From IMG/VR virus record IMGVR_UViG_3300044846_002040, positions 1-38,453 of that record: DNA of 38,453 nucleotides. The stretch is one strand, 5' to 3'. Both the position numbers and the translations under genes were made by a program. This document shows positions 14,010-32,136 of the stretch, in pieces. The DNA comes from a virus (taxonomy: Duplodnaviria; Caudoviricetes). Each line of letters starts with the position of its first letter. The first letter of the stretch is position 1. The notes below the pieces were generated by a model. It worked only from the letters and a program-made list of their open reading frames with translations, had not been told where the DNA came from and ran no database searches.

Positions 14010-14675
14010 TCAAAACTTACGACTATTTATATTACACATCTCTATTTGATTTATATTTACATGTTTTGGCAGAGATCCAACCCAATAAATTGCGTTTGCT
14101 AAATCTTCTGCAGATAGGGCGTCATCTCTTTTTTGTTCTTGAGTATCGATTGTAGCAGGACAGATTTCAGTTATTTTTATATTATATTCAGGAAATTCTA
14201 ACCTCATCGTGTCCACCAAACCTCTTTGCCCACGTTTAGCATTGGTGTAGTTTCCCCCTCCCCAATAAGGAATCTTTCCACCAAAAGACGTTACAAACAC
14301 AATAGTTGCAGACTCTGACCTTTTTAAACATGGCACAAATAATTGAGATAAATACATTGGCCCTGTTACATTAACATCATATGCCCGTTTAAAATTTTCT
14401 GGAGTTTCATTAATTATTTTTGTAGGACTGACCCCACCTCCAGCATTATTTACTAAAAGATCAATAGTTATATCTTTGTAAGTTTCAAAAAACTTTTCTA
14501 TTTCTGGAAAATCTGTTATATCTAATTTATAAGTTTCAACATTTTCTGAAATTAATTCTGAAATTTTTGATAAGTTTCTGGATACTGCTATAACTTTATA
14601 TCCATTTTCAGATAAAAGTTTTACAGTTGCATATCCAACACCCTTGCTAGCACCAGTTACTATTGCCGTTTTCAC
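14010..14675 (-). CDS. Short-chain dehydrogenase/reductase (YdfG-like)
   Basis: TGASKGVG, NNAG, YTNAK (YxxxK), C-terminal 'EDLANAIYWVGSLPKHVNIN' typical of YdfG clade. Confidence 0.88.
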   Translation of the reverse strand: MKTAIVTGASKGVGYATVKLLSENGYKVIAVSRNLSKISELISENVETYKLDITDFPEIEKFFETYKDITIDLLVNNAGGGVSPTKIINETPENFKRAYDVNVTGPMYLSQLFVPCLKRSESATIVFVTSFGGKIPYWGGGNYTNAKRGQRGLVDTMRLEFPEYNIKITEICPATIDTQEQKRDDALSAEDLANAIYWVGSLPKHVNINQIEMCNINSRKF

Positions 14676-14685
14676 CTATACTGAC

Positions 14686-15303
14686 CTAGTGAATCCAGTG
14701 TTGAGGAACCATTATCTTTTCGCCACTTTTAACTAAGTGTGCTGTATGGTGATACGGTGGTGAAGGAGGAAAAACAATAATACTTCCTGCCTTTGGCTTT
14801 ACATAAAAACTATAATTTCCATTATTTTTTGCTTCTTCAAAATCTGACTCTGGGCTAGGCTGAGTCAATACTCCTTCTGGAGAGGCAATTGTAAAAGAAA
14901 TTTCTCCACCCTCATAATCATCATTTAAGTACATAACAAAAGAAACTTTAAGTCTTTCGTCACCCTCTTGTTGGTCAAAGTGAGCCCCCATGTATGTTCC
15001 AGGCATATATTTTTTAATTGGATACTGAGGGAATAATTTTGGCTCATCTGTAATTCCTTGTGCTTTGGCATAGTCTCTTGCTACATCATCAAATGCTTTT
15101 TGTAATGTTTTATATATATAATCATTTTCTAATGACTCGACAATATTTTTATCTGTTCCATACACATATTCCTGTCCACTACAAGCCATCCACTCACCCC
15201 AAGGATTCTTGTTATCATTTTCAATTGCTTCAACAAGTTTTTTAGGATCTTCTATTACATTTGTGTAATAATAGACTTTTTCTTCAAGTATTTCTTTATC
15301 CAT
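14686..15303 (-). CDS. 2OG-Fe(II) oxygenase, prolyl-4-hydroxylase-like
   Basis: HFD...YLNDDYEGGE...PKAG...H; Lys at 2OG-binding position. Confidence 0.85.
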   Translation of the reverse strand: MDKEILEEKVYYYTNVIEDPKKLVEAIENDNKNPWGEWMACSGQEYVYGTDKNIVESLENDYIYKTLQKAFDDVARDYAKAQGITDEPKLFPQYPIKKYMPGTYMGAHFDQQEGDERLKVSFVMYLNDDYEGGEISFTIASPEGVLTQPSPESDFEEAKNNGNYSFYVKPKAGSIIVFPPSPPYHHTAHLVKSGEKIMVPQHWIH

Positions 15304-15314
15304 GGCATTCTCCT

Positions 15315-15974
15315 TTAGTATTTATTTTTAACATAGTGGTCTACTTCTTTTATAAAGCCAACCAAAACATATCTTATTGGTCCCTCACCAACATGTCTTA
15401 CTCCATGCTCATATTTTTCATTTCCTGGAAAAATTAAAAGTTCTCCTGGTTTTGGCCTTAATTCTAAATTAAGATTTTCAAAAAACAGTTCTCCCTTATT
15501 GTAATCATCATTAAGATATAGTATTGTAGCGTATTTAATTGATGGATCAGTATGTTGGTCTGTATGGTGTTTTAGTTCAATTCCAGGCTGCATTCTTTGA
15601 ATAGTAGCAAAACCGCTTAAATGTGTACTTGGGTCTGATTCTACAACCATGTCATTAAGTCTTTTATAAAAAGGCTTATACTCTTTATAATGTGAAATGT
15701 TTAAATTTTTATCAGCCCAGTTTTGAGTAATTTCAAATTTGCCTTCAGCAACAAGATTTTCAACATCATCTCTACCAAATTTTTCCATACAAAATCTTGG
15801 TAAATTTGATAGATATTCCACTTCCCAATCTGCTTGAGATGCTTCATTAATTTTACTCCATATAAAATCTACTTCTTCTTTTAATGGATAGTTTTTAACT
15901 AATAATAACTCTTCTGTTATTTCTTCAAATTCATAATTATTTTTTGCTAATTGTTGCTTAAGGTTATTAATCAT
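15315..15974 (-). CDS. 2OG-Fe(II) oxygenase, prolyl-4-hydroxylase-like
   Basis: HTD...YLNDDYNKGE...PKPG...HGV...R; start ATG 15974 with SD AGGAGA. Confidence 0.85.
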   Translation of the reverse strand: MINNLKQQLAKNNYEFEEITEELLLVKNYPLKEEVDFIWSKINEASQADWEVEYLSNLPRFCMEKFGRDDVENLVAEGKFEITQNWADKNLNISHYKEYKPFYKRLNDMVVESDPSTHLSGFATIQRMQPGIELKHHTDQHTDPSIKYATILYLNDDYNKGELFFENLNLELRPKPGELLIFPGNEKYEHGVRHVGEGPIRYVLVGFIKEVDHYVKNKY

Positions 15975-15975
15975 C

Positions 15976-16722
15976 CTATATCTCCTCTGGTTTATACTTA
16001 TTTCCATACACGTCTATTTTCCACCCTTGCTTAAGCAATTCTTGCCACTCTGCTCTTTCAATTTCTTGTTTTGCTCTGGTTTCTTTCATTTCTGCTGCCC
16101 AGGCATCTCTTAGTTCTTGTGGATATGCATCTTCTTCACGGTCATCCCAAAAAGAACCTATGGTATATCTAACACCATTAGTAATAAGTGTCACTTCATG
16201 CATATTATTAAATCCACCATCAAATGCGGCAAGCGTTCCAACTCTAGGTTGAATATTTAAATCTTGATTTGGAAATTGTAAAAGGCCTCCATCAAAATTA
16301 TCATTTAAATATAAAAATGCTGCATACCTACTTCTAGTAAACGCTCCAGAATTTCCATGTTCATCTGTATTATCAGAATGAATTCTAGCGTAAGCCCCTG
16401 GCTCCCATTTTTGTGTATGATATCCAATTTGACAAATTATTTTTGGATCAAGATCATGAACACTTGCAACTGCATTTATAATTCCTTGTTTAATTTCTGA
16501 AAAAATATTAGGACTAAGACCTTCATTAATAACATCTTCATCATTATCTTTTGGCAATACAGATGAGTAAGATTCATAAAAAGATATAGGCATCCAAGTA
16601 ATTTTACCAGCATCTGCATGTTTGTCTAAAACTTTTATTAATTTTGCACAAGTATCTTCATCTATAAAATTTTCATAAATTACAATATCTTTGGTTAATC
16701 TTTTTTTATTATTTAAATTCAT
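15976..16722 (-). CDS. 2OG-Fe(II) oxygenase, prolyl-4-hydroxylase-like
   Basis: HSD...YLNDNFDGG...HEV...RYT; ATGA overlap with upstream gene. Confidence 0.85.
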   Translation of the reverse strand: MNLNNKKRLTKDIVIYENFIDEDTCAKLIKVLDKHADAGKITWMPISFYESYSSVLPKDNDEDVINEGLSPNIFSEIKQGIINAVASVHDLDPKIICQIGYHTQKWEPGAYARIHSDNTDEHGNSGAFTRSRYAAFLYLNDNFDGGLLQFPNQDLNIQPRVGTLAAFDGGFNNMHEVTLITNGVRYTIGSFWDDREEDAYPQELRDAWAAEMKETRAKQEIERAEWQELLKQGWKIDVYGNKYKPEEI

Positions 16723-17393
16723 GGTTTTCTATCTCCAGTATGTTCTATAATTTCCCAAAAAAATGGACAGGTGTATCGAATACCACTCTTAATCTCTGTT
16801 ACTCCGTGAACATAATTCATATCCCCTGGGAAAAAATATGCTGCACCCTTTTTTGGTTTAAACTGAACACCTTGCAATGGGAAGTATAACTCTCCACCCT
16901 CATAGTCTTCGTTTAAATAAAATAGGCTTGAAAGATCATAGTTTGGAAAATCATTAGGAAGTCCAGCATCTGGACCTTCATGTAATTCTTTATCTGCATG
17001 AGGATTTTGAAATTGTCCTGGAAGCCATCTAACAATAGTTGTGCCAGTAGGAATAACTTTTACCTTATAAAACTCTTCAACAATTGGTTGTAATCTTTGA
17101 AACAATCCAGCAATAACTGGTGCAATTTTAGGATCATTTTTATCTAATGTTGGAGAGGTTGCAACCCTATCTTTCCAATAATCAGAATCGTATACAACTG
17201 TGCCATTTTCATTAACATGTGTTTCTGTTACATCCCATATAGTTATAGACTTAGCAGCCTTTTCTAAGAAATCTATTTCTTCTTGAGTCATAAAGTTTTC
17301 TAACTCAACAATCATTTCTTTACTATTTCCAAACCACCCAGAAGGTGTCATTGAAGGTTTTCTAACTACTACCGATGCCTGCGTTTTGTCCAT
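16719..17393 (-). CDS. 2OG-Fe(II) oxygenase, prolyl-4-hydroxylase-like (leaderless)
   Basis: HAD...YLNEDYEGGE...PKKG...HGV...RYT; TGATATAAT 17400-17408 ends 6 nt before ATG. Confidence 0.87.
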   Translation of the reverse strand: MDKTQASVVVRKPSMTPSGWFGNSKEMIVELENFMTQEEIDFLEKAAKSITIWDVTETHVNENGTVVYDSDYWKDRVATSPTLDKNDPKIAPVIAGLFQRLQPIVEEFYKVKVIPTGTTIVRWLPGQFQNPHADKELHEGPDAGLPNDFPNYDLSSLFYLNEDYEGGELYFPLQGVQFKPKKGAAYFFPGDMNYVHGVTEIKSGIRYTCPFFWEIIEHTGDRKP

Positions 17394-17424
17394 AATTTTA
17401 TTATATCATAGGGTTTTATATCCC

Positions 17425-17880
17425 CTATAACTCCATCTGTATTTCTAATTGCTTTAAAAATCTATTTGGGTCAAATCTCCAATTATCCTTAGCAAATGAG
17501 GTTACAATTTTAACACATAACTCCTCATAATCTTTTTTATCTAACTTATCTTTAACTGAATGCAACGCCTCGACAGTATCTATATAGTTTTGCCTAACAA
17601 AAGATGGATCTCCAGCATGGTTTCTTCTTAAAATTTTAGTATCAACTTTCCCGTTTGGATAATATAAAGATATTTTTTGATGTTGTTTTGCAAATCCTGC
17701 ATCTTGATACATTTCATATCCCTCTATAGCCTCTTCTAAACTGTAAAAAGATACAATAGACCTTATTGTTTCTTCTTCATCTCTACATACTGTCAATAAA
17801 TAATGATATACTTTTTCATTTTTAATTTTGTTAAGATATTCATTAAGAATATACGTATTTGATGTATTTAATTGACTCAT
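17425..17880 (-). CDS. Hypothetical protein in oxygenase cluster
   Basis: 151 aa; ATGA-coupled to upstream gene; no motif recognised. Confidence 0.7.
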   Translation of the reverse strand: MSQLNTSNTYILNEYLNKIKNEKVYHYLLTVCRDEEETIRSIVSFYSLEEAIEGYEMYQDAGFAKQHQKISLYYPNGKVDTKILRRNHAGDPSFVRQNYIDTVEALHSVKDKLDKKDYEELCVKIVTSFAKDNWRFDPNRFLKQLEIQMEL

Positions 17881-18593
17881 AATGTTGTGTTTGGTAATTT
17901 ATCTTTTACATAAAGTTTTAAAACTTTAACCTCATGATTACCTAAAGACTCTCCCTTTTCATTTATAGCATCCCTATACCAATCAGTCCAACCTCCAGTA
18001 GAATTTATTTTTTGTGCTGCCTCGCCATATGAAATATTTGCATTTGTTCTTAATCTTTCTTCGTCTTTCCATTCTAACATTTCAATTGTAGTATTATTTA
18101 AATTTGTTAAAGATATTGGAATTATAGTTGCTAATGGAGTTCCTGCTTTTATAATTACTCTTTCATTTGCCTTTTTTACTTTAATTGCTAAGGGCAATGG
18201 ATTATCATAAAAAGAAGTACTAATTATATTTGACATTGTTTCAAAATATTCATTAAAATAATTAACTGGATTTATTGTTAAAATACTTATATCGTTATCT
18301 GTTTTAAAAATTAAACTAGTATTGAAACTTATTGATGATTGTCCTCTTCCGCCATAAGCCCCCGAAGGACTAAATATTTCAACATGTTCGCTAGTTTGAT
18401 CATTAATCCCATCCCAAATAAAATCAATATCTTCCAAACAAGAAAGGCTCCAGCCAACAACATTGGCCTGAGTTACTGGGAAACACCTGTATGCATGTTT
18501 TTCTGATGTATTATCCATCCAATCTCTTTTAATTGACATTGGAGTAATAACAAAATTACACCCAGGCATTTTTTCAACTGATATATTTAACAC
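17877..18593 (-). CDS. DUF6065-like protein
   Basis: 'RDWMD...AYRCFPVTQANVVGW' and 'AGTPLATIIPI' motifs. Confidence 0.6.
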   Translation of the reverse strand: MLNISVEKMPGCNFVITPMSIKRDWMDNTSEKHAYRCFPVTQANVVGWSLSCLEDIDFIWDGINDQTSEHVEIFSPSGAYGGRGQSSISFNTSLIFKTDNDISILTINPVNYFNEYFETMSNIISTSFYDNPLPLAIKVKKANERVIIKAGTPLATIIPISLTNLNNTTIEMLEWKDEERLRTNANISYGEAAQKINSTGGWTDWYRDAINEKGESLGNHEVKVLKLYVKDKLPNTTL

Positions 18594-19276
18594 TACTCAT
18601 TGTCCCATTTTGGATCATACATGTCTGGTGTGTGATATTTTTTACTGTAGTCTAACATTGTTACAATAGAATATTTTGTTCCAGAGTGAACGGGCATTGC
18701 CTGATGTGGATACATAAAATTAGAGGGGAATATATAAAGATCTCCAGCCTTTGGTTTAATATTTAAATTCTGCAATCTAAAATACAACTCTCCGCCATCG
18801 TAGTCATCATTAACATATGCAACTAAAGAAACTGTGCAATTATAAGAATACCCATGATCATGATGCTCTTTAAAATGTTGTTTTGGACCATACTTAATAA
18901 AATTAAAAGCCTCCCAATATTTTAATTTCATAATATTGTAGTCTCGTCTATAGTCTTCAACGGCTGCTGCCTGAGCATCGTAAACGTCTTGCCAGAGTTC
19001 CTGTAGTTTTAGTGAATCTTCACTTTTATCTTGTTCTATATCAGTTTTTTTAAATTTAAAATCTACACAATCTCTATAGTCAGGCATTAATTGTTGATAA
19101 CCTACGTATGCTGGCATCCAATGGTATGCTTTTCCTTCTGATGATAACTCTCCATACCCAGCAACAGAACCCAAAGTGCTTTCAAGTCTATTAATTACAT
19201 CAAATTCTTTTTTTATTACTCCACGATAGCAGGTTATTCCCTGTCCAAGACTTTCTTTTTCTGTCCATGTTTGCAT
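18593..19276 (-). CDS. 2OG-Fe(II) oxygenase, prolyl-4-hydroxylase-like
   Basis: HHD...YVNDDYDGGE...PKAG...HQA...KYS; paralogue of 20053-20766 (shared DCVDFK, EAFNF.KY, YNCTVS). Confidence 0.87.
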   Translation of the reverse strand: MQTWTEKESLGQGITCYRGVIKKEFDVINRLESTLGSVAGYGELSSEGKAYHWMPAYVGYQQLMPDYRDCVDFKFKKTDIEQDKSEDSLKLQELWQDVYDAQAAAVEDYRRDYNIMKLKYWEAFNFIKYGPKQHFKEHHDHGYSYNCTVSLVAYVNDDYDGGELYFRLQNLNIKPKAGDLYIFPSNFMYPHQAMPVHSGTKYSIVTMLDYSKKYHTPDMYDPKWDNE

Positions 19277-19285
19277 TTTATCCCC

Positions 19286-20053
19286 CTATTTATATTCTCT
19301 TTTTGTCCATACTTTACTTTTATATACCCCGCCGTCAGGCTGTCTATAAAAACTTGCATTATTTACCATTTTATCATACATTTCTGATTGATTTAAAATA
19401 TCAATTTCATGTTGCCAATCTTCTCTTTTAAATGGAAGAATTTGTAGATAAGGAGTTCCTGCAGGCAGGGTTCCTTCCCAACCATCTGCAATAAAAAATG
19501 GAAAACTACCTAAAAGATGAACTTTATCTGAATCTACAATACCAGTAGTATTTATAAAAGGTAAGTCAAATCTATTCATGGGCGTCATGAATAAAGCGCT
19601 ATAGCCTTCTGGTAGTTCTATTCCCCAATCTGGCATCCAAGCAAAATGGTTTTTATAAAATCCTTTAGGGTGTTCAAATTGTGGCATTGCTGGCCTTGCG
19701 CTACAAAAATCTTTAAACTTTATATCATCTACCTTAACATCAATTGTGCCTTTAGAATTTTTAAAAAATGTTAAGTCACATGGAGTTTTAAAAGTATATC
19801 CCGTCATAAATGCATCTAGAATTGCTGGACAAGCCTTCCAGGTTGGAATCTTGCCGTAATCATCTTTGGTTCCTGGCTTTGGAAAAGGACAAACCTCTTT
19901 TGGTGCTTTATAATATTCTCCATTTGGCATTTTTGCAAATCTATCTGCATCTTTATACCATTGGGGAATTATGTCTTGTGTTGGAACTGGAACAGAAATA
20001 CTTTTTTTATTTAACCAAGGTCTAAATGATCTAAACTTAACAACTAAAGACAC
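19286..20053 (-). CDS. DUF6065-related / degenerate dUTPase-fold-like protein
   Basis: PQWYK, K.CP..D...GY, PEGYSALF..P.NR, GIVDSD, GTPYLQILPFKR. Confidence 0.55.
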   Translation of the reverse strand: MSLVVKFRSFRPWLNKKSISVPVPTQDIIPQWYKDADRFAKMPNGEYYKAPKEVCPFPKPGTKDDYGKIPTWKACPAILDAFMTGYTFKTPCDLTFFKNSKGTIDVKVDDIKFKDFCSARPAMPQFEHPKGFYKNHFAWMPDWGIELPEGYSALFMTPMNRFDLPFINTTGIVDSDKVHLLGSFPFFIADGWEGTLPAGTPYLQILPFKREDWQHEIDILNQSEMYDKMVNNASFYRQPDGGVYKSKVWTKREYK

Positions 20054-20766
20054 TACTTATGTCCTAATTCATTGATGTCCGTCATAACTACAACACAATA
20101 TTTTGCTCCATTTTTCATTGGCAAAGATGCATGTTCGTAAATATAGTTAGATGGACAAAGCAAGATATCCCCTATTTTTGGAGTATGAGTATAGTTATTA
20201 AATCTTGGAAATCTAATCTCTCCACCTTCATAATCATCATTAATATATATTACTGCAGAAACTGTACAATTATATGCTGGTCCATGATCTGCGTGGATAT
20301 TAAAGTGTTTACCTTCACCCTCATATTTTACAAAATTAAACGCTTCATAATATACTATATGTATTCCCCAATATTTTGCATAATCATCAACACAAAACTT
20401 TAATTTTTGATATATTTCTTCATGTAGATCAAGAAGTTCCGCATTATGCTCATTCCTTAAACCTAAATTTTCTTTTTTATATTTAAAATCAACACAATCT
20501 CTTGCTTTTTTTATTGGTTTTTCTGAGTTTGTAACTGTTGCATCTGACCACTTATATTTACCGCCACTATTTAAATTAGATTCAAGTATTTTTATATATC
20601 TTTCAGAATCTTCTTTTGAAAATACATTTCTGTATAAATTTATACCCAATTCTGGATTTTCAACTACAATATTATTTCCTATAGTTTTTACTGGATATCT
20701 ATTTGTTGATGTTTCTGATCTATCTTTAGTAAACCATGGTATTTGATTTTCATCTTCATATATCAT
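20053..20766 (-). CDS. 2OG-Fe(II) oxygenase, prolyl-4-hydroxylase-like
   Basis: HAD...YINDDYEGGE...PKIG...HAS...KY; start likely ATG 20766 with SD GGAGAT. Confidence 0.87.
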   Translation of the reverse strand: MIYEDENQIPWFTKDRSETSTNRYPVKTIGNNIVVENPELGINLYRNVFSKEDSERYIKILESNLNSGGKYKWSDATVTNSEKPIKKARDCVDFKYKKENLGLRNEHNAELLDLHEEIYQKLKFCVDDYAKYWGIHIVYYEAFNFVKYEGEGKHFNIHADHGPAYNCTVSAVIYINDDYEGGEIRFPRFNNYTHTPKIGDILLCPSNYIYEHASLPMKNGAKYCVVVMTDINELGHK

Positions 20767-20826
20767 ATAAATTATCTCCGTCTCTTTATTATATTGTATC
20801 ATAAAAAAATGTTTTATTTATTAAAC

Positions 20827-20878
20827 AATAAAAGTAATAAAAAATATTTAATTTATATTATTTTTTATTACTTTTATT
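20827..20878. repeat. Perfect 20-bp AT-rich inverted repeat, 12-nt spacer
   Basis: AATAAAAGTAATAAAAAATA (20827-20846) / TATTTTTTATTACTTTTATT (20859-20878). Confidence 0.9.
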
Positions 20879-20928
20879 ATTTTTTTATTTGTTTAAAAAA
20901 AGATTAACCAAACATAATGTTACTGTTC

Positions 20929-21732
20929 TTACTGGAATATAATGTTACCGCCACCGAAACCTGGGAAGAACGGGAAGAATGGTGGGAAGAACGGGAAGAA
21001 TGGTGGGAAGAATGGGAAGAACGGTGGGAAGAATGGGAAGAACGGGAAGAATGGTGGGAAGAACGGGAAGAATGGTGGGAAGAACGGGAAGAATGGTGGG
21101 AAGAATGGGAAGAACGGTGGGAAGAATGGTGGAAAAAATGGAGGAGTAGTTACACTACCTGATGCATTTGAGGTTCCTGAGTTACCATTATCGTTAGTTG
21201 CATAAACTGTATAAGTTTGTGAAGTATTTGCTTCTTGAGTAACATTAACACTTGTTGTTCCTGAACCTACTGTAGCGCCTTTTCCATCAGAAGATGCCCA
21301 AGTATATCCAGTAATTGCTTTACCACCATTTGCAGGGGCAGTCCAAGAAACATTATCATTCAATGCTGAAGTTGTTACGCTTGGTGCAGAAGGTGTTGCT
21401 GGTACTGTAGTTGCTGTAATAGAGTTAGAGGCAGATGAATCAAGTGATGAACCTGATAGGTTATTTCCTTTAACGGTAAATGTATAAGATGTATTGGATT
21501 GCAATCCTTCAATTGTTATAGGTGAAGAAGAGCCAGTTGCTGTATAACCACCTGGTGATGATGTAACTGTAAAAGATGTTGCTGGCGCTCCTGCTCCTTC
21601 AGAAAAGGTTACAGTGGCAGCACCGTTGTTAAATGCACGAGATGTTCCCACATCAGTTGCTGTTCCAATTGTTGGGATGCCAGGAGCACCCTTCGCAGAG
21701 GAACTAATGGTGCCCAGAATATCTGTTGCCAT
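20929..21732 (-). CDS. Tandem fibronectin type III protein with Pro/Phe-only C-terminal repeat tail
   Basis: Two FN3-like units (PGIPTIGTA...GLQSNTSYTFTV; PATPSAP..VSWTAPANGG...YTVYATNDNG) then 61 residues of only P/F. Confidence 0.85.
   Translation of the reverse strand: MATDILGTISSSAKGAPGIPTIGTATDVGTSRAFNNGAATVTFSEGAGAPATSFTVTSSPGGYTATGSSSPITIEGLQSNTSYTFTVKGNNLSGSSLDSSASNSITATTVPATPSAPSVTTSALNDNVSWTAPANGGKAITGYTWASSDGKGATVGSGTTSVNVTQEANTSQTYTVYATNDNGNSGTSNASGSVTTPPFFPPFFPPFFPFFPPFFPFFPPFFPFFPPFFPFFPFFPPFFPFFPPFFPFFPPFFPFFPGFGGGNIIFQ
20962..21144 (-). repeat. Coding tandem repeat, mainly 21-nt units encoding PPFFPFF
   Basis: 61 codons: 27 Pro + 34 Phe as 17 FF dipeptides; Pro codons vary synonymously (CCA/CCG/CCT). 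Confidence 0.95.
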
Positions 21733-21761
21733 TAACCTACCCTTTCCGTTCTTTAATTAAA

Positions 21762-24370: not shown

Positions 24371-26497
24371 TTATGCTTCGATATAAGTTTTGCTTACTTT
24401 AACAGCAGTATCTGCTGATGCACCAGTTACCTGAAGAAGAACGTTTCCACTGCTGTAAACAGCGTTAGTTGTTCCTAGTTCAGCATTGCTGATTACATCT
24501 GCATACTCTGTTAAGTAAACGGAATTGTTTCCATCAACTGTAACAAGTAATTCAATTACTTCAATATCATTACCCTTTTTCATTTGTACGATATATTTAG
24601 CACTTGAGTATGTAGTTGCTGACCATGTATCAATTGTTGTTGCTGAAGTTGAAGCGGTAGCAAGAGCAGATCCAAGAAGAACATCTGGAAGAGCAATACT
24701 TGTAGCAGTTGCTGCACCAAGAGTTGGTGTAGTAAAGGTTGGACTGTTAGTAAATGCTACTGTTCCAGATCCTGCTTCATCAGTTAATGCTGATGCAAGG
24801 TTTGCAGAAGATGGAGTTGCAAGGAATGTTGCCACGCCTTCTCCAAGACCTGAAATACCAGTTGCTACTGGAAGACCAGTTGCATTTGTTAAAGTTGCTG
24901 CTGATGGAGTTCCAAGATCAGGAGTTGTTAATGTTGGTGATGTTAGTGTCTTGTTTGTAAGGGTTTGTGTACCTGTTAATGTTACTACAGTTGAATCAAT
25001 ATCAAGAGTGTTTCCAGTCTTGTCTAATCCTGTACCCGCAACAATTTGTCCTAAACCAGTAAACTGAGTAAAGGTAAGTGCTGTAGTTCCAACTGTGATT
25101 GCACCATTATTGGTTAATGTATAACCTTGATCAGCGTTTACAGTTCCTTGTTCTACGAATACTGCAAAGTTTGCAGTAACTTCTGCACCTGAATCTGCAT
25201 CAGTTGAACGATCTGGGGCACCAGATGCCTTAACAACGTAGATACCGTTTTCTGAACCAGTTGACTGATCTTTAACAAGAACACGATCTCCAGTAGCAAG
25301 AGTTACGCCATCAAGGACATCTCCATTTTCAAGATCAGAAGCAAGTGTTACGTTAGCAGTTGTTGCTGCTCGTACAGATGCTTTCCAGTCAATACCTTGT
25401 GCTGCTGAGTCTACATAAGACTTTGTTGCTGCATCTGTTGCATCTGTAGGAGTTCCAAGACCTGTAATCTTGTTTGTACCCATTGCGATTGCGCCAGACA
25501 TTGTTCCACCAGCAAGTGCTAACTTAGCAGCAAGATCTGTTGTAAGATTTGCAATCTTAGACTGAGCGATTGCAGCAGCAGAATTAATGTCTGCATCTAC
25601 AATTGTGTCATTAGCAATCTTTGCTGAGGTTACTGCACCGTCTGCAATTTTTGCTGTTTCTACAGAGTCTGCAGCAAGTTTACCAGCAGTTACGTTAGCA
25701 TCTGTAATCTTTGCTGTGGTTACTGCGCCATCTGCAAGTTTGCCAGTGGTTACGTTTAGGTCTGTAATCTTTGCTGTGGTTACTGCACTATCTGCAATCT
25801 CTGCTGTATTTACAGCACTATCTGCAATCTTAGCATTTGTAACTGAGTTTGCAGCAAGTTTTGCATCTGTTACGTTAGCATCAAGAATCTTTGCAGTTGT
25901 AACTGAGTCTGCAGCCAACTTTGCTGCTGTTACGTTTGAGTCTGTAATCTTTGCAGTTGTAACTGAGTCTGCAGCAAGTTTTGCTTCTGTTACGTTAGCA
26001 TCTGTAATTTTTGCTGTAGTTACTGAATCTGTAGCAAGTTTTGCTGCAGTTACGTTTGCATCTGTAATTTTTACGGTAGTTACTGAATCTGAAGCAAGCA
26101 TTGTTGCTGTAACTGTACCAGTATCACCAGATGTAACTACGGTACCTGTTACGTTAGGAAGTGTAATTGTACGATCTGCTGTTGGGTCTGCAACTGTAAG
26201 AGTTGTCTCGTAGTCATCTGCTGTTGCGCCTTCAAACACAATGCTTGATTCAAAAACACCAACTGCTGCTGGTGCTTTCCAGGCAATTCCATTTGTTGCA
26301 TTTGAGTCTGCAGTAAGAACATAGTTATCGGTTCCAACGGCGAGACGAGTTACTGCGTCTGCAGCAGATGCTACTAGTAAATCACCTTTTGCGTCTACTA
26401 ATGCTTCTGTTAATATATCGTGAGAGTTAACGGTCGCAGTTGATCCTTCAACTACCAGTCCCGCTTTTACTCTAAAATCTTTTGTTACGGTTGCCAT
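24371..26497 (-). CDS. Long tail fibre/virion protein with decamer repeat shaft
   Basis: 708 aa; AKGDLL module, VTxAK repeats, DAATKSYVD, GDRVLVKDQ...ENGIY module; SD AAGGAG. Confidence 0.8.
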   Translation of the reverse strand: MATVTKDFRVKAGLVVEGSTATVNSHDILTEALVDAKGDLLVASAADAVTRLAVGTDNYVLTADSNATNGIAWKAPAAVGVFESSIVFEGATADDYETTLTVADPTADRTITLPNVTGTVVTSGDTGTVTATMLASDSVTTVKITDANVTAAKLATDSVTTAKITDANVTEAKLAADSVTTAKITDSNVTAAKLAADSVTTAKILDANVTDAKLAANSVTNAKIADSAVNTAEIADSAVTTAKITDLNVTTGKLADGAVTTAKITDANVTAGKLAADSVETAKIADGAVTSAKIANDTIVDADINSAAAIAQSKIANLTTDLAAKLALAGGTMSGAIAMGTNKITGLGTPTDATDAATKSYVDSAAQGIDWKASVRAATTANVTLASDLENGDVLDGVTLATGDRVLVKDQSTGSENGIYVVKASGAPDRSTDADSGAEVTANFAVFVEQGTVNADQGYTLTNNGAITVGTTALTFTQFTGLGQIVAGTGLDKTGNTLDIDSTVVTLTGTQTLTNKTLTSPTLTTPDLGTPSAATLTNATGLPVATGISGLGEGVATFLATPSSANLASALTDEAGSGTVAFTNSPTFTTPTLGAATATSIALPDVLLGSALATASTSATTIDTWSATTYSSAKYIVQMKKGNDIEVIELLVTVDGNNSVYLTEYADVISNAELGTTNAVYSSGNVLLQVTGASADTAVKVSKTYIEA
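25604..26113 (-). repeat. 17 x 30-nt coding repeat (VTTAKITDAN / VTAAKLAADS alternation)
   Basis: Counted in translation and visible in DNA. Confidence 0.88.
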
Positions 26498-26512
26498 CTT
26501 TTATCTCCTTGG

Positions 26513-26959
26513 TTAAGCCTTTAATCCCATACGCATGTAGCGTAGAGTTATAGGGGTTTGTCCTCCCACTGGAACAACAGTTAGTGAAACTGTATCTCCA
26601 GCCCGTGAAACAGAGATGGTGCCAATATTCCCATCGTTGTCTATCGTTGCATATTCTGTAACTGAAACACCTGTTCCATCTACAAGAATATTCATCTCTG
26701 TGGCGTAATATTTATTTGCGCCTCCAGAAGTCTTTTTAATTGAGATTACATATCTCATTGATCTAAATTCGCTTGCTAAAAAGTTGTCAAATACTGTTGA
26801 ATTTTCAATGCCATTAATTGTTGATTCGTTATTTCCAGAACTACCCAAATCTGTTGCTTGTGCTGACAGGGTGTCAATTAAATCAACATAGTTTTCCTGG
26901 GTTGGTCTATCTCCAGTTTGAAATAATGCTTTTACTGCTGAGAGCGATACTTTAGCCAT
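26513..26959 (-). CDS. Virion structural protein (leaderless)
   Basis: FQTGDRPT..Y.DLID N-terminus; C-terminal domain similar to C-terminus of 24371-26497; TGATATAAT 26966-26974 ends 6 nt before ATG. Confidence 0.65.
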   Translation of the reverse strand: MAKVSLSAVKALFQTGDRPTQENYVDLIDTLSAQATDLGSSGNNESTINGIENSTVFDNFLASEFRSMRYVISIKKTSGGANKYYATEMNILVDGTGVSVTEYATIDNDGNIGTISVSRAGDTVSLTVVPVGGQTPITLRYMRMGLKA

Positions 26960-26979
26960 ATAGGAATTATATCATATTA

Positions 26980-27201
26980 TTAAAGAATATAGTTATTAAT
27001 TCCAATAATTTGAAGTCCAATTCCAGGTACTCCAGAATATGGAGAAGGTATTCCAATTGTAGTAAATCTAATTCTAAAAGGTAAAATTTCACTAATTTTT
27101 ATTCCAGTGTTTATTGGAATAATTTTAGCAACTGCGTAATCTACTGACTCAATCTTTTTGGTTCTTTGTGTAGTTTCATCAATAATTATTGCTAAAGCCA
27201 T
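26980..27201 (-). CDS. Small hypothetical (probably structural) protein
   Basis: 73 aa; TAATG coupling. Confidence 0.65.
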   Translation of the reverse strand: MALAIIIDETTQRTKKIESVDYAVAKIIPINTGIKISEILPFRIRFTTIGIPSPYSGVPGIGLQIIGINNYIL

Positions 27202-27611
27202 TACGACTCGCTATTTGTTACATCTTCAATAATTATCATTGTTCCTCTGGCTACCGTCCAAACCCTACTCTCATCACTTAATTCAATATCAAAGATATCG
27301 CCAGTCTCTAGCATTGTTGAATCATTTGCACTTAGTGAAACTGTAAACTCTCCGTCTAAATCTGTTTCTGTTGGAGAAGGTGCTAATTCTACAATTAACT
27401 CTGCATCATCTGTAAACTCTCCTGGTTTAGTATTTGGTCTTTTAATTTCCATTGCAATGTTCCAGTCTTCAATAACTAATGGATCTTTATTGTCGTCTGT
27501 TACATATACTCTAAATGCTGCAGTGTCTCCTCTAACTACCGTCCAAGTTACGGTAGGTGGTGTTAAGCCAACAGAATAAGAACTTTGTTGTTGTGATCTC
27601 AGTATTGCCAT
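27201..27611 (-). CDS. BppU-N-like baseplate/adaptor protein
   Basis: WTVVRGDTAAF motif, paralogous to 32773-33126 and 33977-34378; start ATG 27611 via TAATG overlap. Confidence 0.55.
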   Translation of the reverse strand: MAILRSQQQSSYSVGLTPPTVTWTVVRGDTAAFRVYVTDDNKDPLVIEDWNIAMEIKRPNTKPGEFTDDAELIVELAPSPTETDLDGEFTVSLSANDSTMLETGDIFDIELSDESRVWTVARGTMIIIEDVTNSES

Positions 27612-28132
27612 TATGATAAACCTGCTTTCAGTGATCCCCATGTGCCGTTGCCTTTTGGCTGACCAACAACTAATATTCCAGTTGTTGCGTTAGACTTTCC
27701 TACTATTGCTACCGCACCAGAACCAGTTGCTGGCTGTGTTGCTGTTAGTCCTCCACCATCTGCAACATAAAGAACATTTCCAGCGGTAAAAGAAGTTGTA
27801 TTTGCATCAAGAATTACTCCAGAGATAGTAACAACGCCATCTGAGTTATTTGCAATTGCAGAACTTGTTAATCCTAATACTGGAAATGTACTAATATTAT
27901 CGGAATCACATTTTTCAATTGTTGTTTTTGTATTAAATCCAGTTACATAAACTGGTGTTGCTTTTGCAATTGTTGAACCACTTATATTTCTAACTTCTAT
28001 TGTATGATTTACAAGAATAGGCAAGATAAGTTCGATTTGCTCTGCTAATTCTTGTAAATCTCCATGAATATCTACTGGATCGCTAGAAAGCGGATAAGGA
28101 AGGTCATAGTTTGCAGTTACACCAGTTGCCAT
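27611..28132 (-). CDS. Virion structural protein
   Basis: MATGVTANYDLPYP...D.V.HGD...LA N-terminus and 'GNVLYVADGGGLTATQP' decoration-like domain; TGGTATAAT 28142-28150. Confidence 0.6.
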   Translation of the reverse strand: MATGVTANYDLPYPLSSDPVDIHGDLQELAEQIELILPILVNHTIEVRNISGSTIAKATPVYVTGFNTKTTIEKCDSDNISTFPVLGLTSSAIANNSDGVVTISGVILDANTTSFTAGNVLYVADGGGLTATQPATGSGAVAIVGKSNATTGILVVGQPKGNGTWGSLKAGLS

Positions 28133-28197
28133 AATCTTATTATTATACCACTTCATACTGTAATATTTTTAATAAATGTTCGGGTATATTGATAAAG

Positions 28198-28227
28198 TTG
28201 ACTTAAATCCCTAAATCATGTTATAAT
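28198..28227 (+). promoter_or_regulatory. Sigma70/SigA-type promoter for the lysozyme gene
   Basis: TTGACT (28198-28203)-18 bp-TATAAT (28222-28227) with extended TG. Confidence 0.75.
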
Positions 28228-28233
28228 TAATGT

Positions 28234-28253
28234 ACTACCGAAAGGTAGTTTTT
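28234..28253 (+). promoter_or_regulatory. 5'-UTR GNRA hairpin with T-run
   Basis: ACTACC-GAAA-GGTAGT then TTTT, starting at predicted +1. Confidence 0.6.
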
Positions 28254-28274
28254 GTTTCTAAGGAGGTAACACTA

Positions 28275-28826
28275 ATGAGAAACATTGAAAAAAAGGTTTG
28301 GTTGGGGTTACTATCTATCGTTGGCTTGGTTGCGCCTTTTAGCAATTCTGCTAATGCTTTAGATAATAATTTATTGACTAAACCATCCGTTGAAGCCGTT
28401 CCAGCCCCTACAGGGGCTTTTCTGGTTTCTAAGGAGAGTATATTAAAAAAATATGAAAATGCTCATAAATTAACTGATAGCCAGTTAGTTGACCTATTGA
28501 AGGCTATAGGGTTTAAAGGTGATAAATTAAGAACAGCATGTGCAATTGCAAAGGCTGAATCTAATGGAAGACCTTTTGCTTTTAATGGCAACTCAGAAAC
28601 TGGAGATAGTTCTTATGGAGTATTTCAAATAAACATGATAGGAAAACTGGGTCCTGATCGTAGAGAAAAATTCGATCTTGACTCTAACGTTGAATTATTT
28701 AACCCAGTTACTAATTCACAAATAACATTTCACATGACTAAGGGTGGTAAAGATTGGTCAGCATGGAGTTCTGTGAACGGACCACGGTACCAAGAATGGT
28801 ACAACAAGTATCCATGTAAAGCGTAA
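28275..28826 (+). CDS. Secreted lysozyme-like / SLT lytic transglycosylase
   Basis: SD AAGGAGGT; signal peptide MRNIEKK-VWLGLLSIVGLVAPF-SNSANA; AIAKAESNG and SYGVFQIN motifs; W.AW. Confidence 0.85.
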   Translation: MRNIEKKVWLGLLSIVGLVAPFSNSANALDNNLLTKPSVEAVPAPTGAFLVSKESILKKYENAHKLTDSQLVDLLKAIGFKGDKLRTACAIAKAESNGRPFAFNGNSETGDSSYGVFQINMIGKLGPDRREKFDLDSNVELFNPVTNSQITFHMTKGGKDWSAWSSVNGPRYQEWYNKYPCKA

Positions 28827-28837
28827 AGATTAAATAT

Positions 28838-28875
28838 AAAAATACCCTCCTTGCTTTTGGTTTGGAGGGTTTTTA
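28838..28875. terminator. Bidirectional intrinsic terminator between convergent genes
   Basis: ACCCTCC (28844-28850)/GGAGGGT (28864-28870), A-run before and T-run after. Confidence 0.7.
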
Positions 28876-29829
28876 TTTGTCTCGTCTTGGAGGCATCCCA
28901 AGAGATCTATGTTCTACAAATACGTGCGAAACATAATTTGGAATAAACTCTAAATATTTTGTGTCTATTCCAGACTCTATAAAAAACGCAGAAACTTTTT
29001 CTTTTGGAACGTCTAGTTGTCCAGACATCAACATAGAAAGCCTGTTAGTTGATTCTTCAACATGTTTCCAATAAGGTTCTTTTCTGTCGTCTGCCCAAGG
29101 TCTAAGGATTTCTCTTGTTACCGAACCGTTTGCTTGACGGTGTGACTGATTATGAAAAACATCTCTTGTTCCAATAGAGTATATTTTCCAATTTTTTGCA
29201 TAAGTTCTTAATGATAAAGCAAACTCTTCTGTGTTAAAAGATTCTTCATCATTAATTCCAACTTCGTTAACCCATTTTTTAGGTGCAAAAAGATAACAAC
29301 ATGTTGCCCAATATGAACGCACAACTTGATCTATTTCTAATACACTGTATCCTGGAAATTTAAAGCCTGGAATTAATTCAGCAAAAAAAGAACCGTACAT
29401 GGATGATTTGACTATTGCATCAAGATTAATTGCACCGCTTGGCATTATTTCGTAATCTGCTGGGGCATAACAAATAATAAAATTTTCATCATTAATTTTT
29501 AGTTTTTCATATCTTTCAATAGCCATTACATCCCAACCTGGAGATGCATGTGTGTGTGAATCAAACTGTATAAAATAATCATATTCAATATCTACCTGTG
29601 TTGCTAATTCTCTAGCCCAACAAACTCCACCTCTATATTCTGATAAATCAAAATGTCTATAAAATAATTGTTTGTTTGGTATAAAAGATAAGTTATATTG
29701 TTTATTATCTTCTGACACAATAGAAAAATACAATTCTTTTTTATTTTTTGCTTGACTCCACAAAGAAAATATTGTTGAATAAAACTCTGGATCACAATAA
29801 TTTACAACACTGACTAATAGTTTTTTCAT
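28873..29829 (-). CDS. GT-A glycosyltransferase, Skp1-hydroxyproline GlcNAc-transferase (Gnt1/GT60)-like
   Basis: VSVVNYCDPE, GVCWAR, YFIQFDSH...GWD, EE..LS.R.Y...W.IY...H motifs in the family order. Confidence 0.78.
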   Translation of the reverse strand: MKKLLVSVVNYCDPEFYSTIFSLWSQAKNKKELYFSIVSEDNKQYNLSFIPNKQLFYRHFDLSEYRGGVCWARELATQVDIEYDYFIQFDSHTHASPGWDVMAIERYEKLKINDENFIICYAPADYEIMPSGAINLDAIVKSSMYGSFFAELIPGFKFPGYSVLEIDQVVRSYWATCCYLFAPKKWVNEVGINDEESFNTEEFALSLRTYAKNWKIYSIGTRDVFHNQSHRQANGSVTREILRPWADDRKEPYWKHVEESTNRLSMLMSGQLDVPKEKVSAFFIESGIDTKYLEFIPNYVSHVFVEHRSLGMPPRRDK

Positions 29830-30386
29830 TATTTATTTCTTATTTTTGTATATAAATACTGTGGACCTTCAGTAAAAAACCAATGGTTTGGCTCTACATA
29901 AAAAAAGAAAGCATTTGCAACTAAATTTGTTTCTGGATTAGGAAAATCTAGCCTCCAGTGCTCTTGATCATTTCCATAAGATATTACCATGTCGTTTTCT
30001 TCTGGCTGAAACCTTTTTCCCTCTACATAAAAATCCCAGGGTGTTTTATGAAAAATAGTATAATTCATATGATATGTACAAGCATTATCGTCTTTATGTT
30101 TCCACAGTTTTGCTTTATTGGTTTCATAAATACTTATAAGAGACCATGATGGCAAAAGAGTTTCTGATTCAAACTGTTCTTTTGCTAGTGGTAGCAACAT
30201 TTCATGAAATTTCTTTAATGGTTTTATATTTTCTTTAGGATCCCCTTCCCAGATTGTCCACTGATGTCTTCCAAAACTTTCATCAAAGGTAGTTTTGTCT
30301 GTTGACCACAAATACATAGCAAGATTTTGTAATTCTTTATGCTCTTTTTCTGGAAAAATAGTTTTTAACAAATATGGAGATTTCAT
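29829..30386 (-). CDS. 2OG-Fe(II) oxygenase
   Basis: Y.....LWKHKD...C...Y.G....HWR...F.FY; TAATG-coupled to glycosyltransferase. Confidence 0.75.
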   Translation of the reverse strand: MKSPYLLKTIFPEKEHKELQNLAMYLWSTDKTTFDESFGRHQWTIWEGDPKENIKPLKKFHEMLLPLAKEQFESETLLPSWSLISIYETNKAKLWKHKDDNACTYHMNYTIFHKTPWDFYVEGKRFQPEENDMVISYGNDQEHWRLDFPNPETNLVANAFFFYVEPNHWFFTEGPQYLYTKIRNK

Positions 30387-30387
30387 G

Positions 30388-30621
30388 CTACCAATTACCT
30401 ATTGGACATGCTGCCTTTTCTAACTTTGTTTTTGCTGCCATAAAACACCCACATTTTTTGCACTGTTTTGTTAATTTTATTAATTCTGGACATTCCATAC
30501 ATATTGAATATCTGTTATTAGATATTTCTTCAGAAACATAATCTTTTAAATTAACAAGGTGCCAAGGTCTAGTATCTCCAAGATTTTTTTTATATTTTTT
30601 CCAAGCAGATTCTTTTTCCAT
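30388..30621 (-). CDS. Small Cys-rich protein (DUF6171-like)
   Basis: R..IC..CP...QCKKCGCFM..KT.L....CP.G.W; paralogue at 36409-36606. Confidence 0.7.
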   Translation of the reverse strand: MEKESAWKKYKKNLGDTRPWHLVNLKDYVSEEISNNRYSICMECPELIKLTKQCKKCGCFMAAKTKLEKAACPIGNW

Positions 30622-30628
30622 TAAACAA

Positions 30629-30838
30629 TTACCCTTCTATAAAATTATTACCGTCCCATGTCCAACCTACTTTAACATCTAAGTCTGAAGGTATTTCTAC
30701 TATTTTTGGATCAGACTGAAAACCCGCAATAAGTCTTTCTCCAGCGCTTGAATCTTCATTTGTGCTAAACTCACTATCTATTGTAAGTATTGAAAATATA
30801 TCTCCATCAACAATCCCTGCAAATTTTTTAATTGCCAT
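30629..30838 (-). CDS. Small hypothetical protein (GWTWDG..F C-terminus)
   Basis: 69 aa; SD AAGGAGA; promoter TGATATACT 30860-30868. Confidence 0.7.
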   Translation of the reverse strand: MAIKKFAGIVDGDIFSILTIDSEFSTNEDSSAGERLIAGFQSDPKIVEIPSDLDVKVGWTWDGNNFIEG

Positions 30839-30865
30839 ATACTTCTCCTTTTATGTTTAAGTATA

Positions 30866-31414
30866 TCATGCTATACAAATTCCGTTAACCCAACTTCCAC
30901 CCTGGTTACACTGACAATTAAAGCATGCAGCATTTCCACTACAACCATCGGCACATGGTGGTGGTGTTGGTGCAGGTGGAGTTGGTGTTGGTGCAGGTGG
31001 AGTTGGTGTTGGTGCAGGTGGAGTTGGTGTTGGTGCAGGTGGTGTTGGAGTTGGTGCAGGTGGAGTTGGGAAGGATGGGAAAAATGGTGGTGTTGGTACT
31101 GGGGCAACTGGTGTAACTTGATTACTTGATGATGAAAAGTCAGAATCTAAAACAGTATTACTTAACTTTACTGTAAATGTATATGCAGTTCCATTTGATA
31201 ATCCAGTAACTACAATTGGTGATCCAGATCCAGTTTGTGAAATTGAACTAGGAGATGAAACTACTGTATAAGTTAAAGAAGAATCTGGTTTACCCAAATA
31301 TGTTGGTGCTGTAAATGTTACAGACGCTTGCCCATCACCAGCGGTTGCGGTTCCAATTGTTGGTGTTCCTGGTTTACGACCAGCAGATGATAATACGGGT
31401 CCTAGTCTTGACAT
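30866..31414 (-). CDS. Fibronectin type III protein with Pro/Thr-rich stalk and 6-Cys C-terminal knob
   Basis: Start ATG 31414 (TAATG); PGTPTIGTATAG...GLSNGTAYTFTV FN3; TPPFFPSF-(PTPPAPT)x5-PPP-CADGC...CIA. Confidence 0.85.
   Translation of the reverse strand: MSRLGPVLSSAGRKPGTPTIGTATAGDGQASVTFTAPTYLGKPDSSLTYTVVSSPSSISQTGSGSPIVVTGLSNGTAYTFTVKLSNTVLDSDFSSSSNQVTPVAPVPTPPFFPSFPTPPAPTPTPPAPTPTPPAPTPTPPAPTPTPPAPTPPPCADGCSGNAACFNCQCNQGGSWVNGICIA
30956..31090 (-). repeat. Coding tandem repeat, 21-nt units (PTPPAPT x5) preceded by PPFFPSF
   Basis: Five TGCAGG-anchored 21-nt units on + strand. Confidence 0.93.
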
Positions 31415-32136
31415 TATGCAACTAAGTCTCCAAGAACAACCCAAGAGTCGGTGGCACGTTTAATACATACGGCAGATGACCATTGTGCTCTTAATTTTAA
31501 TCCTGGAGTTCCATTTACCGTCGTTGTTCCACCATCTGTTGCTGCTATTGTTACTTGTCCAGAGGTAGTTTGAAGAATTGTAATTTGTGCACCAACTGCA
31601 AAGGCTTGCGCTGCATTTGTTGGAATTGACAATGTTGATGAAGTTGACATTTCAACCATTTTTCCATTATCAGAAAGCACAAGTGTATAAGAAGATCCTT
31701 GTTGATTTATTGAAATGTTTATAACTGGGGCAGTCAATGTTTTATTAGTTAGTGTTGCGGTGTTAGTAAGAGTAACATCTGGGGCTGTCCAGGCTAAGCC
31801 TGATGCCGTTGCAGAGTTGGCTGTTAAAACCGTTCCATTACTTCCAACAGATAAAATAGAAAGTGTATCATTTGCTGAGGCAGAAAGTAGGTCACCTTTA
31901 GCAGCAAAGTCTGTTGCTTTTAATGTTGATCCAATGTCAATAGCAGTTATTTGACTTTGTAAATTATTAATTGTGTAAGCAATAGATGGGTTTACTAAAG
32001 AACCTTCAGAAGCATTTGCGGGGTTATAATTTTCGTCGCCATAATGATATAGGCGTAAGGCTGCTTGAATATCGGCAGCGTTGGACAATCCTGGAATTTT
32101 AGTTGGTACTAATGTACCTATCGATTCTGCTGCCAT
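31414..32136 (-). CDS. Short tail fibre/adaptor protein
   Basis: AKGDLL module; TLTNKTLT; C-terminal KLRAQWSSA...WVVLGDL homologous to that of 21762-23858; promoter 32153-32161; SD GAGGTG. Confidence 0.72.
   Translation of the reverse strand: MAAESIGTLVPTKIPGLSNAADIQAALRLYHYGDENYNPANASEGSLVNPSIAYTINNLQSQITAIDIGSTLKATDFAAKGDLLSASANDTLSILSVGSNGTVLTANSATASGLAWTAPDVTLTNTATLTNKTLTAPVINISINQQGSSYTLVLSDNGKMVEMSTSSTLSIPTNAAQAFAVGAQITILQTTSGQVTIAATDGGTTTVNGTPGLKLRAQWSSAVCIKRATDSWVVLGDLVA

Follow-up and report, generated by a model that had tools for sequence, protein, structure and literature searches.

Proline-rich fibre tips and their candidate tailoring enzymes as swappable modules in a Caudoviricetes genome and its relatives

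What do tandem 2-oxoglutarate (2OG)-Fe(II) oxygenases encoded by a phage act upon? The question is raised by a viral record of 38,453 nucleotides in IMG/VR (IMGVR_UViG_3300044846_002040, Caudoviricetes; the whole stretch is referred to here as the window), in which two loci between positions 14,010 and 32,136 share one layout: a fibre gene is followed by a gene for an FN3 protein whose tail is rich in proline (the tip protein), and then by a block of enzyme genes. An earlier note, made from the sequence alone, had proposed that the enzymes of each cassette are dedicated to the adjacent proline-rich protein. The gene positions and the two-cassette layout that it described were recovered in full, with all genes on the minus strand. 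The reading favoured here, to which a probability of roughly 0.6 is assigned, is that the window contains two swappable tip modules: in cassette 1 an array of oxygenases likely hydroxylates a Pro/Phe tail, and in cassette 2 a distinct oxygenase and a GT60-like glycosyltransferase likely hydroxylate and O-glycosylate a Pro/Thr tail. The system itself is real, recurrent and swappable, and the mechanism suggested by the sequences is plausible.

The tail of tip protein 1 comprises 34 Phe and 27 Pro in 62 residues, and that of tip protein 2 comprises 26 Pro, 11 Thr and 5 Ala in 46 residues, followed by a six-cysteine peptide; the TPPFFP motif noted previously is present at the start of both. All six P4H-like oxygenases predicted in cassette 1 scored above the Pfam cut-off (PF13640 at 37-57 bits, cut-off 27) and have intact HxD..H iron ligands, with a Lys or Arg ∼10 residues past the last His; they are mutually 22-41% identical over alignments of at least 76 residues. 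A profile of the array matched Bacillus anthracis P4H (E-value 1e-11), P3H1 (1e-10) and a chlorovirus P4H (2.5e-8) in the PDB, with the top five rows being P4H or P3H enzymes, followed by PKHD, lysyl hydroxylase and Tet-like entries (7e-5). The GT60-like assignment in cassette 2 was likewise borne out by PF11397 (71 bits against a cut-off of 21, E 1e-19), D90, H92 and H226 being conserved in the alignment and the DxH motif thereby kept. In the cassette-2 oxygenase, residues H97, D99, H143 and R145 are invariant across 21 sequences.

Relatives were collected by scanning IMG/VR with seven queries (the two FN3 proteins, two flanking core genes, DUF6065, GT60 and the cassette-2 oxygenase), with the best 80 loci taken from each of six scans and 41 loci from the GT60 scan. 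Local profiles, themselves checked against Pfam, were used to label the genes; tails were classed from dipeptide counts (by which those of L351 and L283 are Pro/Phe tails), and an array was defined as three or more P4H-like genes. The counts cover 167 of 170 distinct tails, namely those with a closed slot or at least four genes in view. Pro/Phe tails (n = 100) were followed by an array in 77 cases and by DUF6065 in 81, with the cassette-2 oxygenase behind five, GT60 behind three and an empty slot behind ten. Conversely, none of the 54 Pro/Thr tails, which consist of repeats such as (PT)n, (PVAPT)n, (PTPTA)n and (VTPP)n, had an array and only one had DUF6065; the cassette-2 oxygenase accompanied 46, GT60 19 and a nucleotide-sugar epimerase 22. 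The 13 mixed tails all had the cassette-2 oxygenase and never an array. The short-chain dehydrogenase/reductase (SDR) that had been noted in cassette 1, and which was confirmed by Pfam, was found behind 39 of the 100 Pro/Phe tails versus 0 of the 54 Pro/Thr tails. The proposed co-variation of tail type with enzyme set is therefore positive in raw counts, and since tail type predicts the enzyme set across relatives, the enzymes are likely to modify the phage's own appendage tips.

The same association was seen at a fixed genomic position. Slot 1 was defined as the interval between the conserved gene at 23899-24351 and ribonucleotide reductase or the next core gene, yielding 134 closed slots (93 without duplicates). 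At least two P4H-like genes were present with 32 of 34 Pro/Phe tips, and P4H-like genes were absent from 49 empty slots, five Pro-poor aromatic tips and four other tips, although these counts give no frequencies because short empty slots are favoured; in one more locus an array accompanies a Pro/Phe tail that is frameshifted. An array lies upstream in both Pro/Phe exceptions: in G001 it comes after a second Pro/Phe tip, and in G002 it is on a contig that ends before its tip gene. The pairing of one array with two tails implies action in trans, and the stricter pairing of one block with one gene, as the earlier note would have it, was rejected since some genomes have two Pro/Phe tips and one array. 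A further genome has an empty slot 1 and seven oxygenases, its Pro/Phe tip and array being located elsewhere, in a third position. Of 121 distinct arrays, an upstream walk led to a Pro-rich gene from 91 and to a contig end from 23; one of the other seven walks stopped at the frameshifted tail mentioned above, and six, from runs on distant contigs, stopped at other genes. Gly-rich FN3 tips had a P4H-like gene behind 1 of 44 and an array behind none. Among 12 near-complete genomes (at least 90% complete, and picked from the collected loci as opposed to at random), an array was present in all five with a Pro/Phe-type tip, directly behind that tip (G040, G041, G042, G048 and G049), and in none of the seven without. 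Three of these seven (G012, G016 and G017) gave no PF13640 match, and four (G013, G050, G051 and G005) have one to five scattered PF13640 genes and Pro/Thr-type tips with the GT60 or oxygenase set. Arrays thus largely do not occur independently of Pro-rich genes.

Pro/Thr tails occur on several carriers, being attached to FN3 in 5 of 54 cases, fused to the adaptor fibre in 20, and borne on other proteins in the remainder, with the same enzymes on all; they are found also in phages of another group, where the neighbouring genes differ (L437-L440). Where the FN3 domain is at least 80% identical to that of the window, Thr tails came with the oxygenase and/or GT60 in four of four loci, and Thr-poor Pro/Phe tails came without either in five of five (the contig of L087 is cut short, and its longer relative L086 also has none). 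The cassette-2 oxygenase lies directly ahead of GT60 in 15 of 19 cases. Counted from the oxygenase, the next gene is GT60 in 11 of 42 loci and a member of a 343-residue family in 26 (together 37 of 42), with others making up the rest. Six of ten scanned members of this family gave weak O-fucosyltransferase matches under the cut-off (E 0.004-0.06), and at L481:1487-3545 and in its relatives such a protein stands with a 315-residue protein and a GDP-sugar epimerase in place of GT60.

The mechanism envisaged is as follows. A fibre or spike protein would dock the FN3 tip protein via its end domain, with the Pro-rich tail displayed on the particle. The array of cassette 1 would hydroxylate different prolines of the PPFF/PFF repeat, and possibly Phe residues too; it would do so within the cytoplasm and in trans, for any tail of this type in the genome. 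Pro hydroxylation is the likeliest chemistry for tail 1 because protein hydroxylases rank first among the profile matches, the ligands are intact, and tails that retain Phe without Pro-Pro lack the array. In cassette 2, the oxygenase would make hydroxyproline in X-Pro repeats and GT60 would add an N-acetylhexosamine, with somewhat better than even odds that hydroxyproline is the acceptor and about one chance in three that threonine is. A hydroxyproline relay is favoured for tail 2 given the tight order of oxygenase and transferase and the presence of GT60-like genes next to two Thr-free repeats; direct glycosylation of Thr is nonetheless a credible second route in view of the Thr-rich tails and the mucin branch of GT60. 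The earlier assertion that GT60 must use hydroxyproline is not supported, since the family has a Thr/Ser branch and GT60 tracks Thr-rich tails here. DUF6171 may aid folding of the Cys-rich end and DUF6065 may be a general tip-maturation factor, the likely purpose of the whole being to tune host attachment, or else to stiffen or shield the tip.

Several observations weigh against this interpretation. Linked genes travel together, such that raw counts overstate independence. Independent contrasts were calculated on anchor trees (quick and FastTree trees), on which the Pro/Phe state changes 8-10 times with only five independent pairs on supported branches: in slot 1, five pairs gave 4.7 in the same direction and none opposite (median p 0.0625), and in slot 2, two of three pairs agreed (p 0.5). 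Enzyme fractions for Pro/Thr tails are inflated because most such tails were found by the oxygenase or GT60 queries; among 15 Pro/Thr or mixed tails found otherwise, the cassette-2 oxygenase was present in eight and an array in none. The six distinct three-gene runs on distant contigs led to no Pro-rich gene by the upstream walk, and genomes without a Pro/Phe tip still have 0-5 scattered PF13640 genes. Why a two-residue repeat should need six enzymes is unexplained. The cassette-2 protein has the HxD..H triad and basic residue expected from its earlier description as a 2OG oxygenase, but it belongs to a family different from that of the six and has no Pfam or PDB match by sequence. PBCV-1 P4H acts on Pro-containing peptides, and no hydroxyproline was found in purified virions (PMC7019647). 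Finally, DUF6065 is found behind 12 of 44 Gly-rich tips and also behind Cys-rich and Pro-poor tips, and a third copy lies outside both cassettes of the window. DUF6065 is therefore not Pro-specific; a role as a Pro-specific enzyme was rejected, and with it the earlier notion that it is dedicated to the Pro-rich tail.

The shortfall of the contrasts from significance and the scattered PF13640 genes would both fit a hitch-hiking island, in which host-directed auxiliary genes for 2-oxoglutarate turnover or small-molecule synthesis sit in a hypervariable fibre region and are swapped along with the tip gene, which is also the published reading of cyanophage arrays (PMC2938197; PMC9602691). This explanation is considered unlikely, however, since it does not account for the absence of arrays from 58 of 58 non-Pro slots, for arrays tracking Pro/Phe tips into three genome slots, for the other enzyme set that accompanies Pro/Thr tails on several carriers, or for DUF6171 tracking Cys-rich ends. 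The enzymes might alternatively act on the tails by another chemistry, with the array hydroxylating Phe or building a multi-step adduct together with DUF6065 and the SDR, and with GT60 glycosylating Thr directly in the manner of mucins while the cassette-2 oxygenase does something else. The 55% Phe content of tail 1, the Thr/Ser mucin branch of GT60 (PMC3188802; PMC8724618), the occurrence of GT60 without the oxygenase in L428 and L399, and the tails at the 21 GT60 loci where a tip could be seen, of which 17 are Pro/Thr and three are mixed, are all compatible with this. Nevertheless, Phe-rich Pro-poor tails (FGAFGA, FGFSP) lack the array, GT60-like genes are found behind two Thr-free repeats (L115 and L342), and the oxygenase usually lies directly ahead of GT60. 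Such chemistry is considered rather unlikely, and somewhat more so than hitch-hiking.

A very improbable reading treats FN3 as the carrier of a precursor resembling a ribosomally synthesised and post-translationally modified peptide (RiPP), the modified tail of which would be released by cleavage and act on the host or membrane instead of the particle. Self-cleaving Hint or S74 tail ends, and radical SAM/SPASM, methyltransferase or sulfotransferase genes, are found in many relatives and lend it some colour. Yet Hint and S74 lie past the tail, so that cleavage would leave the tail on FN3; neither occurs on the tails of the window; Pro/Thr tails are fused to the fibre in 20 of 54 cases; and no leader peptidase or transporter is among the Pfam matches in either cassette, in which two small genes are unannotated. 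The least probable explanation is a nucleotide or DNA modification cluster, suggested by the ribonucleotide reductase that comes after cassette 1, the match of Tet-like dioxygenases to the array profile and the dUTPase fold predicted for DUF6065. Protein hydroxylases score far better against the same profile, arrays lie also in slots distant from the reductase and are missing from 7 of 12 near-complete relatives, and the invariant residues of DUF6065 probably do not match the dUTPase motifs.

With regard to DUF6065, both proteins of this type named previously in cassette 1 were supported, one (17877-18593) by Pfam at E 1e-26 and the other (19286-20053), which has no Pfam match at E 0.01, by its sharing PHROG 7084 with the first and by a family member that matches DUF6065. 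The model (pLDDT confidence 95.8) resembles the dUTPase beta fold with Z 9.2, a root mean square deviation (rmsd) of 3.5 over 120 aligned residues and a Foldseek E of 6e-4. The family consensus is dUTPase-like only in a GIxDxD stretch, with an extra conserved Cys, and the invariant residues for which a mismatch with the dUTPase motifs is probable are W32, C75, D93 and G85. No papers on DUF6065 were found in the literature searched. DUF6171 followed 22 of 33 Pro/Phe tails with Cys-rich ends versus 1 of 57 others (Fisher p 7e-12, kinship uncorrected). Tips with Cys-rich inserts and without FN3 share the slot in some relatives (L282:5732-6847, L288:2782-3885 and L286:8388-9311), where they are accompanied by DUF6171 and no oxygenase, with DUF6065 in two of the loci and a thioredoxin-like gene in one.

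The homologous end domain reported on both fibres was recovered, with 46 of 98 positions identical (47%, E 1e-25) when the last 100 residues encoded at 21762-23858 were compared with the last 100 encoded at 31414-32136. PDB sequence searches with this adaptor and with GT60 returned nothing useful. A model of the domain (pLDDT 95) matched the C-terminal domain of the Pa223 capsid spike (Z 14.0, rmsd 2.8, 103 aligned), a T4-like gp10 baseplate chain (Z 10.6) and CBA120 TSP4 (Z 10.0), with rmsd 2.4-3.3 over 96-103 residues overall, and an XD-like fold is accordingly predicted. XD domains of TSP4 are described as docking sites for other spikes (PMC8825819), which together with the predicted fold makes the label of adaptor reasonable. 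Since the best fold match is to a capsid spike, both a head and a tail location are possible. Gly-rich tips (PF21722) are borne on the same carrier in relatives.

Table 1. Genes of the two cassettes, in descending order of position
Position	Strand	Feature	Basis
31414-32136	-	Short fibre/spike protein 2, same adaptor end domain	PHROG; end-domain alignment
30866-31414	-	Tip protein 2: one FN3, 46-residue Pro/Thr tail (31093-30956), six-Cys end; presumed substrate	Sequence, Pfam
30629-30838	-	Small protein, 69 residues; left out by the earlier note	PHROG 14370
30388-30621	-	DUF6171 Cys-motif protein; left out by the earlier note	Pfam match under cut-off
29829-30386	-	Distinct oxygenase-like protein, tracks Pro/Thr tails	PHROG 2954; H97, D99, H143, R145
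28873-29829	-	GT60-like glycosyltransferase, D90-x-H92 and H226	PF11397, E 1e-19
21762-23858	-	Fibre/spike protein 1, Mtd_N start, XD-like adaptor end (last ∼100 residues)	Pfam PF18454; structure model
20929-21732	-	Tip protein 1: two FN3, 62-residue Pro/Phe tail (21147-20962); presumed substrate	Sequence, Pfam
20053-20802	-	P4H-like 2OG-Fe(II) oxygenase 1	PF13640, HxD..H..K
19286-20053	-	DUF6065-like protein, predicted dUTPase fold, conserved Cys75	PHROG 7084; fold model
18593-19276	-	P4H-like oxygenase 2; closest solved relative B. anthracis P4H	PF13640, ligand motif
17877-18593	-	DUF6065 protein	PF19541, E 1e-26
17425-17880	-	Uncharacterised gene, 151 residues; left out by the earlier note	No Pfam or PHROG match
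16719-17393	-	P4H-like oxygenase 3	PF13640, ligand motif
15976-16722	-	P4H-like oxygenase 4	PF13640, ligand motif
15315-16007	-	P4H-like oxygenase 5	PF13640, ligand motif
14686-15303	-	P4H-like oxygenase 6	PF13640, ligand motif
14010-14675	-	Short-chain dehydrogenase/reductase, optional array end	PF00106

The genes of the cassettes are listed in Table 1. For the gene of tip protein 2, the likeliest start codon is an ATG at 31414 that overlaps the stop codon of fibre gene 2. The 69-residue protein behind it is possibly an assembly helper, judging from its position, and similar small genes lie behind many tips in relatives. The 151-residue gene is optional, being found in only some arrays of relatives, and may be an unrelated passenger, since short homologues sit in the early-gene region of relatives. 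Outside both cassettes, a JmjC gene, a second DUF6171-like gene (36355-36606) and the third DUF6065-like gene (36585-37340) lie at 35400-37340 with no adjoining tip gene. A collagen-repeat protein (33151-33882) is encoded upstream of cassette 2, and also in relatives without PF13640 genes; it is possibly a further substrate.

Other tail ends and enzymes were observed in relatives. In many of these, the Pro/Phe tail terminates in a Hint domain or in an S74 chaperone, the latter encoded by a small gene of its own that has been split off (L016:9998-11320, L015:2603-3910, L002:2850-3707 and L014:1449-1736); both are absent from the window tails. Behind (FGFSP)n tails, which are poor in Pro, lies a further oxygenase-like family with an HxH..H motif and no Pfam match, and behind (FGAFGA)n tails only DUF6065, so that a third tail-enzyme pairing is possible (L055:9947-16246, L032:7626-10203 and L051:9363-11401). 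Further tip slots contain radical SAM/SPASM proteins, TylF methyltransferases, a sulfotransferase, a GT32-oxygenase fusion and an Asp/Asn hydroxylase (L096:10894-14446, L002:4074-5612 and L015:4590-5174).

The window also encodes portal, protease, capsid and class II ribonucleotide reductase proteins, in addition to the fibre genes, and complete relatives of the phage are 100-116 kb. Its capsid protein is ∼43% identical to those of Streptomyces phages, and an actinobacterial host is inferred. The 24 listed runs in which this capsid protein is present are all lake metagenomes, and no RNA run is among them. An assembly artefact was ruled out as the cause of the two-cassette layout, since the genes of the window recur in other contigs at 99-100% identity and all 30 bins of 13500-32500 are covered by contigs from four runs. 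There is no cultured model phage, in that tip protein 1 has no match among named phage records, and DUF6065 and GT60 have matches of only 21-24% identity there. Taken as a whole, the earlier proposal is partly supported, namely with respect to layout and, in raw counts, to tail-enzyme co-variation, but not where it bound GT60 to hydroxyproline, made DUF6065 specific for the tail and paired each block with a single gene.

If the favoured reading is correct, many phage 2OG-Fe(II) oxygenase genes would encode enzymes of particle maturation, phages would join the organisms with glycosylation linked to hydroxyproline, and Pro-rich peptides could be modified with enzymes that are small and soluble. 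With both candidate substrates and their matched enzyme sets in a single genome, cross-reactions become a built-in control. A broader generalisation is offered tentatively, and at distinctly less than even odds, namely that tip tailoring follows a grammar: Pro/Phe repeats would be served by hydroxylases that are each specific for a site, Cys-rich ends by DUF6171, and X-Pro/Thr repeats by oxygenases of a new family, which would prime exchangeable glycosyltransferases in a relay like that of PhyA and Gnt1, with host range set by swappable hydroxyproline-rich glycopeptides and orphan phage oxygenase arrays thereby gaining a substrate. No description of these Pro-rich tails was found in the literature searched, which was mostly non-subscription, with the supplement of PMC2938197 outside its scope.

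The system would be a variant of phage particle-protein modification. Iyer et al. (2010) described the tandem 2OG-Fe(II) dioxygenase array of Synechococcus phage Syn9 and read it as secondary-metabolite synthesis; a co-encoded substrate, of tail-collar or collagen-like type, was proposed by them only where bacterial operons combine a beta-hydroxylase with a sulfotransferase (PMC2938197). Syn9 resembles the window in having several distant tandem dioxygenases with a dUTPase-fold protein that has a conserved Cys; however, Syn9 is described there with tryptophan halogenases and no substrate gene, whereas the array of the window is led by a Pro-rich tip gene and tail type tracks the enzymes. Arrays of such oxygenase genes are common in aquatic phages, where they have been counted as auxiliary metabolic and host-directed, with function untested (PMC9602691). 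The P4H enzymes of PBCV-1 (PDB 5c5t) and B. anthracis (3itq/5hv0) share PF13640 and the HxD..H..K motif with the array and are among its best PDB matches, but in PBCV-1 a single enzyme is involved, as opposed to six divergent paralogues beside a Pro/Phe polymer. Protist GT60 enzymes include the Skp1 hydroxyproline N-acetylglucosamine-transferase Gnt1, which works with a P4H, and mucin-type polypeptide alpha-N-acetylglucosamine-transferases (PMC3188802; PMC8724618). The protein of the window is likewise above the PF11397 cut-off, with a DxH motif and a position directly behind an oxygenase, but it is phage-encoded beside a repeat tail, its partner is not a PF13640 oxygenase, and its acceptor (hydroxyproline or Thr) and donor are candidates only. 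Glycosylation of mycobacteriophage virions targets capsid or tail proteins, in contrast to the presumed target in the window, and is not known to involve a hydroxylase or a repeat tail dedicated to it. Phage-encoded glycosyltransferases are thought to coat particle proteins in that system (PMC11256854). The analogy with plant extensins that had been drawn is a works-like likeness only: the window has no Ser-Pro4 repeats and no arabinosyl- or galactosyltransferase, its sole glycosyltransferase being GT60. As for the appendage itself, T2 gp38-type proteins are tip adhesins, and the adaptor of the window shares the XD fold with T4 gp10 and TSP4 and has an exchangeable tip gene next to it; in contrast to all of these, its tip ends not in a folded receptor-binding domain but in a Pro-rich polymer with enzymes of its own.

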